64,000 bases of DNA, from contig CBDIDO010000003.1 in assembly GCA_965277735.1 (NCBI GenBank), positions 624,250 to 688,249 of the forward strand, given 5' to 3'. Below the pieces are notes generated by a model that was not told the DNA's origin, searched no databases, and saw only the letters and a list, made by a program, of their open reading frames with translations. The DNA is from Beijerinckiaceae bacterium. Its GTDB lineage: Bacteria > Pseudomonadota > Alphaproteobacteria > Rhizobiales > Beijerinckiaceae. The translations under genes and the position numbers were made by a program. This document shows positions 245-6,439 of the stretch, one piece after another (the first letter of the stretch is position 1; each line of letters begins with the position of its first letter).

Positions 245-1219
245 TCAGCCGAGAACCTCGGCGATGTCGCGGGCGATCGCGTCGAGCGCGACCTGGGCGG
301 CGGGAACGACACCGTTGAGTGCGTAGAAATGGTGCATGAGCGCCGCGTGCTCGCGGTGGCGGACGTCGACCCCGGCGTCGACGAGTCGCCGCGCGTAGGC
401 GGCGCCCTCGTCGACGAGGGGGTCGAAGCTCGCGGTGTGCAGAACCGTCGTCGGCAGCCCGGCGAGATCGCCGGCGCGGAGGGGGGAAATGCGTCGGTCT
501 TCCAGCGGACGCTGCGGCGCATAATGGACGAGATCCGCAGCGAGAGTCGCGGAATCGAGCAGGAAGCCGTCGGCGAAGCGCCGGCGCGAGGGCCTCTCGG
601 CGGCAAAGTCGAGGGCGGGGCAGAGCAGGACCTGCGCGCGCAGGCGCTTCTGCAGGCCTTGGCTCACGATCGCCGCCAGCGTGCCGCCCCCGGAATCGCC
701 GCCGACCGCGACACGCCGCGGGTCGAGCCCGAAGCTCGCGGCGTGGCGCAGGACGAAGCGCGTCGCGACGAGCGCGTCGACGACCGCCGCGGGAAACGGG
801 TGCTCCGGCGCCAGCCGGTAGTCGATCGCGACGACCTGGCACCGCGCGCCATGGGCGAGCGTCCGGCACAAGGCGTCGTGGGTGTCCAAACCGCCGGCGA
901 CGAGGCCGCCGCCGTGAAAGTACACAAGCCCGGCGCTCGGACGATCGAGCCCGCCGGGCGTGTAGCACCGGAGCGGGATCGTTCGCTTTCCGATCGCGAT
1001 GACGCTATCCTCGCTCGCGACGGCAGCGGCAGCGGGCGGCTTCGAAAACTGCATCAGCTTCGCGAATCCGCGACGCCGCTCGTCGATGCCGAGGGCGCTC
1101 CCGCGGCCGCCCAGCGCGACCATGGCGAGAAAGCGCCGCGCCTGCGGGTCCAACGCCGAAAGGTCCGCCTCTCCCAAAGAATCCTCCTGCCAGAGAAGCC
1201 GAGCAAATGACCGACGCAC
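245..1219 (-). CDS. alpha/beta hydrolase, hormone-sensitive-lipase-type esterase/lipase
   Basis: 324-aa ORF with the oxyanion motif VYFHGGGLVAG, the nucleophile elbow GGDSGGG and distal D/H (FDPLVDEG, HHF). The GTG start overlaps the divergent neighbour by 13 nt, so the exact start is uncertain. Confidence 0.85.
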   Translation of the reverse strand: MRRSFARLLWQEDSLGEADLSALDPQARRFLAMVALGGRGSALGIDERRRGFAKLMQFSKPPAAAAVASEDSVIAIGKRTIPLRCYTPGGLDRPSAGLVYFHGGGLVAGGLDTHDALCRTLAHGARCQVVAIDYRLAPEHPFPAAVVDALVATRFVLRHAASFGLDPRRVAVGGDSGGGTLAAIVSQGLQKRLRAQVLLCPALDFAAERPSRRRFADGFLLDSATLAADLVHYAPQRPLEDRRISPLRAGDLAGLPTTVLHTASFDPLVDEGAAYARRLVDAGVDVRHREHAALMHHFYALNGVVPAAQVALDAIARDIAEVLG

Positions 1220-2127
1220 CGGACGCGCTTGGGATCGATACCTGGACCTATTTCGAGGGCCGTTGGCAAGCCGGCAACGCGCCGATCATGGGGCCGCGCA
1301 CGCATGCCGTGTGGCTCGGCTCGACCGTGTTCGACGGCGCCCGCACCTTCGGCGGCACGGCGCCCGACCTCGACCTGCATTGCGCCCGCATCAACACGTC
1401 GGCGGAGGCGTTCCTGCTGACACCGGTCGTGCCGGTCGCCGACTGGATCAAGCTCGCGCACGAGGGCATCGCCCGCTTCGAGCCCGGCGCCGAGCTCTAC
1501 ATCCGCCCGATGTACTGGCCGGAAGATGGCGCGGCCGGCGGCGGTGTGCGCTTCGACCCCGGCTCGACGCGCTGGTGCATGTGCGTCTACCGCGCCCCGA
1601 TGCCGGAGCCCGCGGGCTTTGCGATCACGCTGTCGCCGTTCCGTCGTCCGTCGATCGAATGCGCGCCCGTCGATGCCAAGGCCGGTTGCCTCTATCCGAA
1701 CGGTGCGCGCGCGCTCATCGAGGCGTACCGGCGCGGCTTCGGCAATTGCTTGATGCTCGATCTCCTCGGCAACGTCGCCGAGCTGGCCAACTCGAACATC
1801 TTCATGGCCAGGGGCGGCATCGTCTACACGCCCGTGCCGAACGGCACGTTCCTCGACGGCATCACGCGCCGCCGCGTGATCGGGCTGCTCGAGGCCGACG
1901 GCGTCGAGGTGCGCCAGGCGACGCTGCGCCATGCCGATTTCCTCGGCGCCGACGAGATCTTCGCGACCGGCAATTTCGCGAAAGTGGTGCCGATCACGCG
2001 CATCGAGGCGCGCGAGCTGCCGATCGGTCCGCTCTATCGGCGCGCCCGTGCGCTCTACTGGGACTTCGCGGCGCGCGGTGCCAAGGTCGCGCCCGAGCTC
2101 AGCCGAGTTCCGGCGCCAGCTCTTTGA
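1207..2127 (+). CDS. branched-chain amino acid aminotransferase (PLP fold type IV)
   Basis: 306-aa ORF. The N-terminus TWTYFEGRWQAGNAPIMGPRTHAVWLGSTVFDGARTF is typical of the Rhizobiales class IV aminotransferase family. Third-position GC is high. Confidence 0.85.
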   Translation: MTDAPDALGIDTWTYFEGRWQAGNAPIMGPRTHAVWLGSTVFDGARTFGGTAPDLDLHCARINTSAEAFLLTPVVPVADWIKLAHEGIARFEPGAELYIRPMYWPEDGAAGGGVRFDPGSTRWCMCVYRAPMPEPAGFAITLSPFRRPSIECAPVDAKAGCLYPNGARALIEAYRRGFGNCLMLDLLGNVAELANSNIFMARGGIVYTPVPNGTFLDGITRRRVIGLLEADGVEVRQATLRHADFLGADEIFATGNFAKVVPITRIEARELPIGPLYRRARALYWDFAARGAKVAPELSRVPAPAL

Positions 2128-2329
2128 TCTCTGCGATCGGCGAGCGGCCCCAGAGCGCCTTCATCACCTCGTAGAGCGAGGCGTCGACGGTCAGCTCGTG
2201 GCTGCGGTCGAAGATGATCTTGCAGCCGCCGGACGCCTGCGTCTCGACGGCGCGGACGAGGGCGGGGTTCACCGCGGCCATCTGGTTGCCGTGGCGGGGA
2301 AAGATCGGAACGTGCGGCAGATCGGACAT
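2099..2329 (-). CDS. small hypothetical protein (76 aa)
   Basis: C-terminal part of track ORF 2099..3271. An ATG at 2329 is preceded by GGAAGAGG. Coding-like codon bias. The 3' end overlaps the convergent aminotransferase by 29 nt. No family recognised. Confidence 0.5.
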   Translation of the reverse strand: MSDLPHVPIFPRHGNQMAAVNPALVRAVETQASGGCKIIFDRSHELTVDASLYEVMKALWGRSPIAEIKELAPELG

Positions 2330-2463
2330 CGCCTCTTCCGGGTTTTGGGGGATGGCCTGCTGGTAAAGGCTCAACCTCAAAGGACCCTGAAGACGGTCGA
2401 TCCAATCCGACCGATTGGCCGAAGGCAGATTACCGCCAGACCATTGAGGCTGACGCGCAGGTT

Positions 2464-2599
2464 CTGTCTTTCCGGGGCGAGCGAAGCGAGAGCCCGGAAT
2501 CCATGACCACCATGAGTCCGGATCAAAACGCAGCGGCCTCGTTCGGAGTCGGCATTGTCCTGGATTCCGGGCTCGCCTTTGGCGCCCCGGAAAGACAGG
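2464..2599. repeat. palindromic REP/MITE-like intergenic element, type 2 (arms CTGTCTTTCCGGGGCG...CCCGGAATCCA)
   Basis: About 40-nt inverted arms: CTGTCTTTCCGGGGCGAGCGAAGCGAGAGCCCGGAATCCA ... TGGATTCCGGGCTCGCCTTTGGCGCCCCGGAAAGACAG. A related copy lies at 55023..55142. Confidence 0.7.
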
Positions 2600-2610
2600 C
2601 ATCGGCTTAA

Positions 2611-4284
2611 TCAGCCTCGCGCCGCCAGCGCCTTCGCCCTGATTCCGCTCAAGGTCGCGCCTGGCAAGATCGCATCGGGGTCGATCTTCAGGTGCAGGAT
2701 CGATGGCAGGCCGGAGGCGCGGGCGTCGGCGAAGGCGTCGGCGAACTGCTCCGTTCTCTCCACCGTGACGCCGAACCCGCCGAAGGCGCGGGCATAGGCG
2801 GCGAAGTCGGGATTGCGGAGCTGCGTTGCCGAGATGCGCGTCGGGTATTCGCGCTCCTGGTGCATGCGGATCGTACCGTATTGCCCGTTGTCGGCGACGA
2901 GGACGATGATCGGCAGGTCGTACTGCACGGCCGTGGCGAACTCCTGGCCGTTCATCAGGAAATCGCCGTCGCCGGTGAGGCAGACGACGGGAACGTCGGG
3001 CTCCAAACGCTGCATGGCGACCGCGGCCGGCACGCCGTAGCCCATCGAGCCGGACATCGGCGCGGCATGGCCGGCAAACCGGCGCACCCGGAAGAAACGG
3101 CCGATCCAGGCCGCGAAATTGCCGGCGCCGCTTGTCAGGATCGCCTCGCGCGGCAGATGTTCGCGCAGCCACACCATGATCTCGCCGAGGTTGACGCCGC
3201 CGGGCTGCGGCGTCGCGATATCGGACCAGGCGCGGTACGCGGCGTGCGCGGCTTCGGCGCTGCCGGTCCACGCCGGCAGCGCGGCCGGGCTGAGCGCGTC
3301 CAGCGCGCCGGCGAGGCCGATCGGCGACGCGCAGATCGCGAGGTCGGCGGCATAGACCCGGCCGAGCTCGCCCGGCTCGGGGTAGATGTGGACGAGCTTT
3401 GTCTTCGGCGTGGGGATGTCGAGAAGCGTGTAGCCCTGCGAGGGGATATCGCCGAGCCGGCCGCCCATCGCGATGACGAGATCGGCGGCCTCGATGCGGG
3501 CCAGCAGCTTGGGATTCGAGCCGATGCCGAGGTCGCCGGCATGGTTCTTATGCAAGGGATCGAACAAAGGCAGCCGGCGGAAGCTGGTGACGACGGGCAA
3601 TTCGAAGCGTTCGGCGAAGCGGGTGGCGGCGGCGCAGCTCTCCGGCGTCCAGCGGCCGCCGCCGAGGATCAGGATGGGCGCCTTGGCGGCGGCGAGCAGG
3701 TCGGCGAAACGCGCCATGTCGGCCGGCAGCGGTGCCATTTCCGTCGGCTCGACGCGCGGGGCGTCGGCGACAGCGACGCGCTCGGTCAGCATGTCTTCCG
3801 GCAGCGCAAGGACGACCGGCCCAGGCCTGCCGTTCATCGCGACGTGGAACGCGCGGGACACGACCTCGGGGATGCGCGCGGCCTCGTCGATCTCGTCCGA
3901 ATACTTGGTCAGCGGGCCGAAGACGGCGCGGTAGTCCAGCTCCTGGAAGGCCTCGCGGCCCCGCGCGCCGCGCTCGATCTGGCCGACGAACATGATCACC
4001 GGCGCGGAGCCCTGCTGGGCGATGTGAATGCCGTGCATGGCGTTGGTGGCGCCGGGCCCGCGCGTGACGAAGCAGACGCCGGGCCGCCCCGTCGCCTTGC
4101 CGATCGCCTCGGCCATGATCGCGCAGCCGGCTTCCTGGCGGCACACGGTCACTTTGATCGGCCGGTCGTGCAGCGCGTCGAGGACGGCGAGGTAGGACTC
4201 TCCGGGCACGCAGAAGATGTGCTCGACGCCTTGCGCGACGAGCTGATCGACGAGCACCTCGGCGGCCGTGCGGGAAGCGGTCAT
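2611..4284 (-). CDS. thiamine pyrophosphate-dependent enzyme (acetolactate synthase large-subunit-like)
   Basis: 557-aa ORF. N-terminal TPP-Pyr domain (AAEVLVDQLVAQGVEHIFCVPGESYL) and C-terminal TPP-binding motif (GDGDFLMNGQEFATAV). It starts 42 nt downstream of the ligase gene on the same strand. Confidence 0.85.
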   Translation of the reverse strand: MTASRTAAEVLVDQLVAQGVEHIFCVPGESYLAVLDALHDRPIKVTVCRQEAGCAIMAEAIGKATGRPGVCFVTRGPGATNAMHGIHIAQQGSAPVIMFVGQIERGARGREAFQELDYRAVFGPLTKYSDEIDEAARIPEVVSRAFHVAMNGRPGPVVLALPEDMLTERVAVADAPRVEPTEMAPLPADMARFADLLAAAKAPILILGGGRWTPESCAAATRFAERFELPVVTSFRRLPLFDPLHKNHAGDLGIGSNPKLLARIEAADLVIAMGGRLGDIPSQGYTLLDIPTPKTKLVHIYPEPGELGRVYAADLAICASPIGLAGALDALSPAALPAWTGSAEAAHAAYRAWSDIATPQPGGVNLGEIMVWLREHLPREAILTSGAGNFAAWIGRFFRVRRFAGHAAPMSGSMGYGVPAAVAMQRLEPDVPVVCLTGDGDFLMNGQEFATAVQYDLPIIVLVADNGQYGTIRMHQEREYPTRISATQLRNPDFAAYARAFGGFGVTVERTEQFADAFADARASGLPSILHLKIDPDAILPGATLSGIRAKALAARG

Positions 4285-4326
4285 GGCGCTGTTCCTATCC
4301 CTTCTCTCCCTGCGGGAGAAGGTAGA

Positions 4327-5244
4327 TCAAGCCATCCCCAGCGCATCCCGCGCCGACGCGGGCCAGCGCGCGGTCTCGAGGCCGTGTATCCAGAACAGCG
4401 CGACGGCGAGTCGGTCCATGCCGAAGGCGACGCAGGCGGTGTGCGCCGGCGCGCCGGCCTCGTCGAGGAGGTCCCAGGTCAGGCCGAAATGATCGCGGTG
4501 GTAGTTGAAGCTCATGCAGGCCGTCGGCTTCTCTTCCGAGTGCAGCGGCACGAGCAGCTCGAACTTCAGCGCCTGCTGGATCTGCGCCACCGCCATCATC
4601 TGGCCGACGCGGCCGAAGAACGGATCGGATGCCTGATCGATCTTGCAGGGCAGGGCGAGGGTCTGCGCCATGGCGGTCGCGCGCTCGAGCCAGCGGGCGC
4701 GGAACCCGGCGACATGCGCCTCCGAGCCGATGCAGACGTATTCGCGCATGCGGAAGGACTGTAGCCGGTCGAGGTCTTTCGACGGCTCGCGGCGGAAGCA
4801 GTCGCTGGCGACGTCGAAGAGCAGTCCCGTGTCCGGCACCGGGCCGCGCGCGGCGGCGATCGGGTAGACGGGGTAGCAGGCGGCGGGCGACAGCACGAGC
4901 TCGGTCGCCTTCAGCGAGTCGACCCAGCCGAAGTTGGGACGGGAGGCGGCGGCGTTGATCTCCGATTCCGAGCCGTGCAGCGCGCAGGCGCAGCCGATCA
5001 GGTTCGGAAAGCTCTTCAGATAGCCGTGGCGCTCGAGGTCGCGGCGGCTCATCACGGGCGGAAAGCGGAACACCTCGGTGCCGGTCTCGCGGTGGCTGGT
5101 GATCAGCGCGCCGAGGCGCTCGATCACGTCTTCGTAAAGTGCGGTTCGGGCGTAGACGCCGTCGGCGCCCATCGGGCGGAACAGCGCCTCGCGCAGCGCC
5201 GTCTGGCGATCGCGGGCGGTGGTGGCGAGCATTTCGTGCGTCAA
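4327..5244 (-). CDS. amino acid--[acyl-carrier-protein] ligase (truncated atypical seryl-tRNA synthetase homologue)
   Basis: 305-aa ORF with a class II aaRS core only: motif 2 FRREPS and motif 3 GMDRLAVALF. Cys/Glu/Cys sit at the zinc-site positions (SPAACYPVY, FRREPS, HTACVAFG). There is no tRNA-binding arm. From memory it is near-colinear with Bll0957/Atu2573-type aa:CP ligases. Confidence 0.8.
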   Translation of the reverse strand: MTHEMLATTARDRQTALREALFRPMGADGVYARTALYEDVIERLGALITSHRETGTEVFRFPPVMSRRDLERHGYLKSFPNLIGCACALHGSESEINAAASRPNFGWVDSLKATELVLSPAACYPVYPIAAARGPVPDTGLLFDVASDCFRREPSKDLDRLQSFRMREYVCIGSEAHVAGFRARWLERATAMAQTLALPCKIDQASDPFFGRVGQMMAVAQIQQALKFELLVPLHSEEKPTACMSFNYHRDHFGLTWDLLDEAGAPAHTACVAFGMDRLAVALFWIHGLETARWPASARDALGMA

Positions 5245-5458
5245 GGCGAGCTCCCTGAGGGCGGGACCACGATCGTGCCGCTATGGCCGGCGGCTCTGCG
5301 CCATGTCCTACACCCGGCACGCGAGAGATGCAGTCCGATCGGTCTTTAGGATTAATGCGCGGCGTGTTGCTCACCCGTTTGCGGGGGACGCGCTGGCAAT
5401 CGCGGCGGCTCCGCCTATTTGGTCTGCAATCCCACCTCCGCATCGGATCGGATCGAGC

Positions 5459-6439
5459 ATGCAATATCGTCGGCTGGGCCGCAACGGTCTCGAAGTCTCG
5501 CGCATCTGCCTCGGCTGCATGAGCTACGGCGTCCCGGACCAGGGCACGCACGAATGGACGTTGCCGGAGGCCGAGAGCCGGCCCTTCATCAAGAAGGCGC
5601 TCGAGCTCGGCATCAACTTTTTCGACACCGCCAACGTCTATTCCGCCGGCACCAGCGAGGAGATCGTCGGGCGCGCGTTGAAGGAGTTCGCCAAGCGCGA
5701 CGAGATCGTGCTGGCGACCAAGGTGCATGGCCGCATGCGCCCCGGCGCCAACGGCGGTGGCCTGTCGCGCAAGGCGATCCTCGCCGAGATCGACAATTCG
5801 CTGCGCCGCCTCGGCACCGATTACGTCGATCTCTACCAGATCCATCGGTGGGACTATGACGTCCCGATCGAGGAGACGCTGGAGGCGCTGACCGACGTGG
5901 TTCGGGCCGGCAAGGCCCGCTACATCGGCGCCTCCTCGATGTTCGCATGGCAGTTCGCCAAGGCGCTGCACACGTCCGACACGCACGGTTTCGCGCGCTT
6001 CGTCTCGATGCAGGATTACGTGAACCTGCTCTACCGCGAGGAGGAGCGCGAAATGCTGCCGCTCTGCCGCGACCAGGGCATCGGCGTGATCCCGTGGAGC
6101 CCGCTCGCGCGTGGCCGCCTGACGCGCGACTGGAGCGAGGAGACGTCTCGTTTGTCGACCGACGAGTTCGGCAAGACGCTCTATGCCAAGACCGCCGAGG
6201 CCGACAAGCGCATCGTCGACAAGGTCGGCGAGATCGCCAAGGCGCGCGGCATCCCGCGTGCGCAGGTTGCGCTGGCGTGGGTGCTGGGCAAGTCCGAGGT
6301 GACGGCGCCGATCGTCGGCGCCACCAAGGCGCACCATCTCGACGATGCGGTGGCCGCGATCGAGGTGAAGCTCGATCCGGCCGAGGTCGAGGCGCTCGAG
6401 TCGCTCTACGTCCCCCACGCGACGACCGGCTTCAACTGA
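5459..6439 (+). CDS. aldo/keto reductase
   Basis: The start MQYRRLGRNGLEVSRICLGCMSYG is the typical AKR N-terminus; 326 aa from the ATG at 5459, inside track ORF 5219..6439. Confidence 0.9.
   Translation: MQYRRLGRNGLEVSRICLGCMSYGVPDQGTHEWTLPEAESRPFIKKALELGINFFDTANVYSAGTSEEIVGRALKEFAKRDEIVLATKVHGRMRPGANGGGLSRKAILAEIDNSLRRLGTDYVDLYQIHRWDYDVPIEETLEALTDVVRAGKARYIGASSMFAWQFAKALHTSDTHGFARFVSMQDYVNLLYREEEREMLPLCRDQGIGVIPWSPLARGRLTRDWSEETSRLSTDEFGKTLYAKTAEADKRIVDKVGEIAKARGIPRAQVALAWVLGKSEVTAPIVGATKAHHLDDAVAAIEVKLDPAEVEALESLYVPHATTGFN

Follow-up and report, generated by a model that had tools for sequence, protein, structure and literature searches.

The window analysed here is a 64,000-nt stretch of a Beijerinckiaceae genome (Alphaproteobacteria; assembly GCA_965277735.1, contig CBDIDO010000003.1, positions 624,250 to 688,249), and its subject is a pair of adjoining minus-strand genes. 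One encodes an amino acid:[carrier protein] ligase (aa:CP ligase), and the other, directly downstream, an enzyme dependent on thiamine diphosphate (ThDP, also written TPP). We consider it probable that this ligase is displaced rather than orphan, that it works in trans, and that it is joined to a cluster-specific TPP enzyme of the same pathway. Comparison of gene orders demonstrates that a rearrangement in a subclade of four genomes cut an ancestral cluster just upstream of the ligase. That cluster held a carrier protein gene, divergent from the gene for an acyl-CoA dehydrogenase (ACAD)-like flavoenzyme, which was followed by the ligase and TPP genes. All of the genes are retained, and the system is therefore argued still to work in trans.

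The ligase scores 439.5 bits against the NCBIfam equivalog NF005479 (amino acid--[acyl-carrier-protein] ligase; cut-off 357), and its residues 15-304 align to Bradyrhizobium Bll0957 (PDB 3mey) with E = 7e-138 and about 70% identity. Models of methanogen-type seryl-tRNA synthetases (SerRS) reach only 46-54 bits and match residues 111-302, the C-terminal core. An N-terminal tRNA-binding domain is absent; the 305-aa ligase aligns only to positions 305-505 of SerRS proteins of 518-527 aa. The zinc triad is kept, its residues in the motifs PAACYP (Cys), MREY (Glu) and TACVAFG (Cys) matching the zinc ligands of Bll0957, which we take to be Cys131, Glu176 and Cys279, in keeping with the chain numbering. 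DCFRREPS and AFGMDRLAVALF both lie within the translation of the open reading frame (ORF), and a Shine-Dalgarno sequence, AGGGAG, stands 6 nt 5' of its TTG start. An earlier, sequence-only reading of this DNA had proposed an aa:CP ligase rather than a SerRS, with the Cys/Glu/Cys zinc positions kept and the tRNA-binding arm absent. The profile searches and alignments bear it out on each of these points, and all of its coordinates and motifs are correct.

Relatives of the window's ligase fall into two groups by their identity to it, type A at 60-88% and type B at 45-54%. By homology, the comparisons establish the gene product as a genuine type-A aa:CP ligase and an orthologue of Bll0957. It is an ordinary member of a known family. 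In its carrier-recognition helix, the element swapped in the 4h2w mutant, the ligase follows the Bll0957 pattern rather than that of Atu2573. Like Bll0957, it has an Ala at the second residue beyond the last zinc Cys, and a specificity for glycine may be taken as a lead rather than a result.

The same earlier reading had described the ligase as an orphan with no carrier protein gene in view. The second part of this description is accurate within the window: no PF00550 carrier gene occurs in the ligase part of it, and the nearest matches in the genome lie outside it. A PF00550 scan of the genome, however, reveals carriers elsewhere. Nine PP-binding matches are found, along with two aa:CP ligases and two phosphopantetheinyl transferases (PPTases). 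A dedicated carrier close to the ligase is thus missing from the window, while carrier and PPTase are both present at the genome level. The word 'orphan' has to be given up, as the genes for the carrier protein, the ACAD-like enzyme and a third core protein survive intact at a distance of 61 kb, and a second carrier module lies just outside the window.

The displaced partners were located by tblastn with the neighbours of the B. diazoefficiens orthologue, namely its carrier, a 413-aa ACAD-like protein and a 318-aa protein. Open frames for all three are present at C3:565.7-568.4 kb, with identities of 55% (ACAD), 50% (the carrier, here CP1) and 42% (the 318-aa protein). The locus is found 61 kb left of the ligase; in it, the ACAD gene on the minus strand is followed by CP1 and the gene for the 318-aa protein, both on the plus strand. 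Among structures in the PDB, CP1 is best matched by 'aminoacyl carrier protein 1' of the Bll0957 complex (4h2s_C, E = 2e-16), and it carries the attachment site GMTSM. Because the site motif of these carriers is G(M/L)TSM and not DSL, screening based on DSL would miss CP1.

Gene order in relatives indicates how the separation arose. Outside the genus of the window, an ACAD-like gene stands directly upstream of the ligase at 78 of 79 loci, CP1 is divergent from ACAD at 74 (the exceptions are cut contigs), and the 318-aa gene lies downstream at 61. Six genomes of the genus itself (G009, G018, G002, G001, G020 and G012) have the unsplit order, with CP1 divergent from ACAD and with ligase and TPP following. 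Four others (this genome, G000, together with G010, G017 and G004) have the ligase followed by TPP, and CP1 and ACAD are not upstream. G017 and G004 carry the same separate locus of ACAD, divergent CP1 and 318-aa gene, at 69-84% identity. Since the loci outside the genus and six genomes within it are unsplit, and since G017 and G004 share the separate locus, the split is a derived rearrangement of one subclade.

The divergent region upstream of the ligase can be taken as the breakpoint, because the ACAD-like gene occupies that place in unsplit relatives. The next gene upstream is on the plus strand, which makes the ligase the first gene of its transcription unit. Inspection of 5245..5458 revealed no credible ORF, in agreement with the earlier description of this spacer, and no match to a sigma-70 consensus was found there. 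The same gene order, at 82-95% protein identity, is present on a contig of a metagenome-assembled genome (MAG), CAZZZM010000003.1 (L044/L124), that is labelled 'uncultured Nakamurella sp.', an actinobacterium. This contig is G010:C3, from a genome of the window's own alphaproteobacterial genus, and its label or binning looks wrong.

The TPP enzyme scores 841.6 bits against NF006052, the model of the PRK08199 subfamily (cut-off 539), over positions 3-554. It falls below the cut-offs of all acetolactate synthase (ALS) equivalogs (TIGR00118, 324 against 538; NF006187, 319 against 509; TIGR02418, 260 against 551). The catalytic Glu of RQEAG and the ThDP motif GDG...DN are readable in its sequence. 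Its solved relatives, all at low identity, are catabolic ALS and similar enzymes (4rjj, 1ozf; BbmA). In a maximum-likelihood tree, one clade (100/100) unites the cluster-linked TPP enzymes, which come from at least five families, and stand-alone TPP enzymes, some of them from the window's own family, fall outside it. The clade was kept when genomes of an unbiased sample were added (SH 100). One genome, G034, has a copy of each clade, so that the two kinds represent paralogous lineages. On this phylogenetic evidence, the window's enzyme belongs to a distinct PRK08199-type clade seen only inside type-A ligase clusters.

The two genes are directly adjacent in all 12 genomes of the genus in which both are visible, with spacers down to 5 nt. 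In the window, 42 nt separate the ligase gene from the start of the downstream TPP gene, which is on the same strand, as had been read from the sequence. Of 301 genomes sampled evenly across the order, 10 have a type-A ligase and five (G000, G053, G119, G132 and G161) have a TPP enzyme of the clade, in every case on the same strand as a type-A ligase and within 7 kb of it. The co-occurrence of ligase and TPP yields a Fisher p of 7e-8 at a 63%-identity threshold, applied before clade assignment. In other families, the order is ligase, 318-aa gene and TPP, or else 318-aa gene and TPP beside the module of the second carrier protein (CP2; see below). The TPP gene follows the 318-aa gene in Bauldia, Rhodopseudomonas, some Bradyrhizobium, related MAGs, G026, G034, G119, G132 and G161. 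The suggestion that ligase and TPP belong together has thus gained support from their adjacency throughout the genus, from the confinement of the TPP clade to clusters and from the unbiased genome sample.

A rival possibility is that the synteny is coincidental. The TPP enzyme could be a general metabolic enzyme, working for example with the class IV aminotransferase on 2-oxo acids, and the ligase cluster could have been inserted beside a conserved block, with the two serving different pathways. PRK08199-type relatives at 53-63% identity are common in ligase-free genomes, in unrelated contexts with no cluster genes nearby, and most ligase loci have no TPP gene. In addition, the TPP gene is usually convergent with the aminotransferase gene, and MetY and MetA are encoded in the same block. 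However, the stand-alone relatives form the separate clade described above, one genome has both kinds, and the aminotransferase is present whether or not TPP is. Moreover, every member of the TPP clade with enough flanking sequence adjoins ligase, tandem-GNAT (318-aa) or CP2-module genes, in shuffled orders across at least five families. We judge coincidence to be unlikely, and favour a shared pathway.

CP2 is encoded about 9 kb from the ligase. Its gene is overlapped by about 14 nt by that of an AMP-dependent ligase, which is followed by a FabG-like short-chain dehydrogenase/reductase (SDR). The best PDB matches of the AMP-dependent ligase are distant acyl-CoA synthetases (E ~1e-14) and offer no clue to its substrate. 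This module adjoins the ligase in Bauldia, Rhodopseudomonas, G132 and G266 and follows the ligase-TPP pair in G001, which raises the prospect that the ligase switched partners after the split and now loads the nearer CP2 instead of, or besides, CP1. In the recognition helix, a Lys of Bll0957 is replaced by Met in the split subclade, which would fit a change of partner, but the same Met is found in unsplit G020, G012 and Bauldia. CP2 also has a loading enzyme gene of its own, and CP1, ACAD and GNAT are intact and conserved in the split subclade. A switch of partner is accordingly rated improbable. To the left of the window, a lone gene for a Wzx/HfsF-like flippase (L012:5810-7246; C3:618056-619639) is divergent from CP2, and the pairing is repeated in G010, G017 and G006. 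Its position beside CP2 hints at an exported or envelope-linked product.

It is also conceivable that the displaced ligase dispenses with a carrier altogether, aminoacylating a free thiol such as CoA or cysteine to give a thioester used by the ThDP enzyme. The aa:CP ligases have been reported to aminoacylate CoA and cysteine in vitro (reviewed in PMC5370406), and ThDP enzymes that act on CoA thioesters (oxalyl-CoA decarboxylase and 2-hydroxyacyl-CoA lyase) are distant relatives of the window's enzyme. For Bll0957, however, a preference for the carrier over CoA by orders of magnitude is reported. Retention of CP1, conservation of the carrier-recognition helix and the presence of CP1 and ACAD directly upstream of the ligase-TPP pair in six genomes of the genus all speak against this idea, which is very improbable indeed.

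Several points weigh against the displaced, in-trans reading that we prefer. Outside the genus, a TPP gene lies within 10 kb at only 7 of the 79 ligase loci; for this reason the TPP enzyme is seen as an optional accessory, one that the core system can do without. In Bradyrhizobium G077, the only TPP copy is of the stand-alone clade and lies 2.2 Mb from the ligase. G006 and G034 have the clade TPP next to GNAT and the CP2 module rather than beside a ligase, so that its closest tie may be to those genes. The cluster TPP clade was partly defined from loci selected for having a ligase, and in the genome search no more than the four best-ranking TPP candidates of each genome were scored. The amino acid loaded, the carrier that is used and the chemistry are all matters of inference, and it is their spacing that suggests co-transcription of ligase and TPP. 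The structural model of the third core protein (below) is of moderate quality (TM ~0.4). No RNA run of this organism was found, and four candidate runs contained only divergent relatives and fragmentary contigs.

From their spacing, the ligase and TPP genes may form a two-gene transcription unit, or possibly a three-gene unit with the 76-aa ORF downstream (Table 1). The imperfect hairpin noticed between them, CCUUCUCCC-GCA-GGGAGAGAAGG, does exist, and its 56-nt context folds at -22.7 kcal/mol (z = -3.6). A reading of it as a signal specific to this locus is not supported, as it belongs to a repeat that is dispersed over the genome. The palindrome of this family, CTTCTCCCGC-N(1-6)-GCGGGAGAAG, occurs genome-wide in 90 perfect copies, and a looser form has 158, compared to about 0.1 expected by composition. 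Among the spacers of the genus, the palindrome is present only in G000, G010 and G017; the spacer of G020 and G012 is 5 nt long. The hairpin is best seen as a decayed copy of this family, a putative element resembling repetitive extragenic palindromes (REP) that was inserted inside the predicted operon. A role as attenuator or terminator was considered and is ruled out by the missing U-tract after the hairpin, by its absence from most spacers of the genus and by the repeat family of at least 90 copies.

A longer palindromic element of about 136 nt, 3' of the TPP stop codon, folds at -82.1 kcal/mol (z = -7.3). It is a likelier 3' boundary of the transcript than the spacer hairpin, and is probably either this boundary or a structure that processes or stabilises the ligase-TPP transcript. 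It probably belongs to a further family of dispersed repeats with this boundary function. A search of 1900..5600 for canonical intrinsic terminators gave none.

Table 1. Features of the ligase-TPP region and of the carrier protein genes outside the window. Coordinates are those of the window unless preceded by C3.
Feature	Position	Strand	Remarks
Class IV aminotransferase, PRK13356 type	1207..2127	+	Convergent with the TPP unit; NF009896 449.7 bits, cut-off 262
76-aa ORF	2099..2329	-	Same strand as ligase and TPP; seen only in the four-genome split subclade; not a carrier protein
Long palindromic element, ~136 nt	2464..2599	-	3' of the TPP stop, before the 76-aa ORF; -82.1 kcal/mol, z = -7.3
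ThDP-dependent enzyme	2611..4284	-	557 aa; PRK08199 subfamily; ligase-cluster clade; PF02776, PF00205 and PF02775 all match
Ligase-TPP spacer, 42 nt	4285..4326	-	Decayed REP-like palindrome at ~4300..4322; TPP Shine-Dalgarno AGGAA
Ligase ORF	4327..5244	-	305 aa, TTG start; type-A (Bll0957-type) amino acid:[carrier protein] ligase; NF005479 and 3mey
Divergent intergenic region, 214 nt	5245..5458	.	Between ligase and aldo-keto reductase; rearrangement breakpoint
Aldo-keto reductase	5459..6439	+	Next gene upstream of ligase, divergent
CP1, Bsr0959-type carrier protein	C3:567242-567463	+	tblastn with the B. diazoefficiens carrier; 4h2s_C
CP2, second carrier protein	C3:619716-619961		81 aa, GLDSL site; 4.3 kb before the window start

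The short ORF downstream of TPP is 84-92% identical in G010, G017 and G004 and is absent from every other locus searched. Its 3' end overlaps that of the convergent aminotransferase gene by 29 nt (2099-2127). Searches against Pfam and NCBIfam gave no family match and no match to PP-binding. The absence of the latter rules it out as a carrier protein, as the sequence-only reading had also held. In many families, the class IV aminotransferase gene is constantly found to the right of type-A ligase clusters, at loci with and without a TPP gene. In most other families, a MetY/MetA pair flanks the cluster. MetY and MetA were considered as members of the pathway and judged probably to reflect housekeeping synteny, since MetA is single-copy here. 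In G021 and G247 (L135 and L154), which belong to another genus of the same family, the order is ACAD, ligase, metY and metA, with no match to CP1 nearby.

The third core protein has 318 aa in B. diazoefficiens and about 290 aa in this genome, and it matches no family of Pfam or NCBIfam. An AlphaFold model built with 22 homologues (pLDDT 76) is similar to Eis-type tandem GNATs (Foldseek E = 3e-8, TM ~0.4). This predicted fold fits a transferase that would take its acyl group from a carrier protein. A precedent for such a carrier-protein-dependent GNAT is described for SbzI of altemicidin biosynthesis (PMC11685415). Homology between the GNAT-like protein and DUF1839, found in type-B cassettes, was considered and none was detected (hhalign probability 0.2%). 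Aravind and colleagues predicted DUF1839 to be an amide-forming enzyme that acts on a surface sugar amine (PMC2922099).

The system may be pictured as follows. The ligase would adenylate glycine, or less likely alanine, and thioesterify holo-CP1 in trans. The ACAD-like enzyme would then oxidise the tethered aminoacyl group, and the tandem GNAT would acylate an amine acceptor, drawing on the carrier-bound thioester and not on acyl-CoA. By decarboxylating or carboligating a 2-oxo acid, the ThDP enzyme would make or modify the partner of the carrier-bound unit, and it might be an optional accessory (tailoring) enzyme of the ligase pathway. The most economical reading of the gene arrangements is a core of CP1, ACAD, ligase and 318-aa protein with two optional modules, TPP and CP2/AMP-ligase/SDR, all four combinations of which are seen.

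These parts can be assembled into a more ambitious scheme, which we regard as doubtful and offer with little confidence. In it, the cluster-specific ThDP clade would catalyse a C-C bond-forming step, with a flavin-oxidised thioester, derived from glycine and carried on CP1, as electrophile or acyl donor. The FabG-like reductase would reduce the resulting 3-oxo group, and the product would be passed to an amine by the tandem GNAT. The acceptor might be a surface glycan or lipid; a gene for a Wzx-like flippase adjoins CP2 in the genus. If this modular pathway exists, it would give aa:CP ligases their first product logic, and its ThDP enzyme would be the first of the ALS-like kind to act on a substrate bound to a carrier protein.

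A review from 2022 still stated that the cellular role of aa:CP ligases is unknown (PMC9437257). The present comparisons define a fixed core for the Bll0957-type system, consisting of carrier protein, ACAD-like enzyme, ligase and tandem GNAT, whose partner genes are kept although scattered over 60 kb. The link to a ThDP enzyme narrows the chemistry to be examined and is a modest lead on a role that has been open since 2010. A minimal five-gene set of carrier, ACAD, ligase, GNAT and TPP exists in some Nitrobacteraceae, and the loci L066, L100, L103 and L120 show this set. There is also a caution for genome mining, in that 'orphan' calls made from a single window can be artefacts of rearrangement. 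A literature search with the locus tags of the neighbouring genes turned up only a Biol Direct note. Two elements appear to be new, neither having been found in the papers that were read: the split confined to this lineage and the ThDP clade dedicated to ligase clusters, together with its modular partners.

The window's TPP enzyme shares the three-domain ThDP fold of ALS and other ThDP carboligases. It differs from ALS in matching the uncharacterised PRK08199 subfamily, and within it a sub-clade tied to ligase clusters. The closest known counterpart of the whole system is that of Bll0957 of Bradyrhizobium japonicum/diazoefficiens, reportedly described by Mocibob et al. in 2010 and 2013 with the carrier Bsr0959 and with Bll0958 (PDB 3mey and 4h2s). 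The ligases are about 70% identical over the core and alike in zinc triad, motifs and helix type, and this genome has orthologues of Bsr0959 (50%), Bll0958 (55%) and the downstream 318-aa gene (42%). In contrast to the Bll0957 locus, however, the genes for the carrier, the flavoenzyme and the 318-aa protein are here 61 kb away, an aldo-keto reductase gene lies upstream and the ThDP gene comes directly after the ligase. Ligase loci of the B. japonicum group have no such TPP gene within 10 kb.

This genome also contains, outside the window and on the minus strand, a second aa:CP ligase cassette of type B (G000:C3:2201900-2207694). It encodes a carrier, an ACAD-like enzyme, a ligase 51% identical to that of the window, a DUF1839 protein (385 bits) and an 817-aa GH2-like protein. 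Such cassettes, known from Agrobacterium (Atu2573/Atu2571/Atu2574; PMC2922099, note added in proof), have a ligase of the same family and follow the same carrier-plus-flavoenzyme logic. The window's system departs from them in its ligase, about 51% identical to the paralogue, in having a tandem GNAT instead of DUF1839 and in having no glycosidase neighbour. For the GNAT, the nearest parallel is SbzI, a GNAT-fold enzyme whose acyl donor is a carrier protein and not CoA; the 318-aa protein is proposed to work likewise. Substrate and pathway are different in the account of SbzI given in PMC11685415, and the likeness concerns mechanism only.

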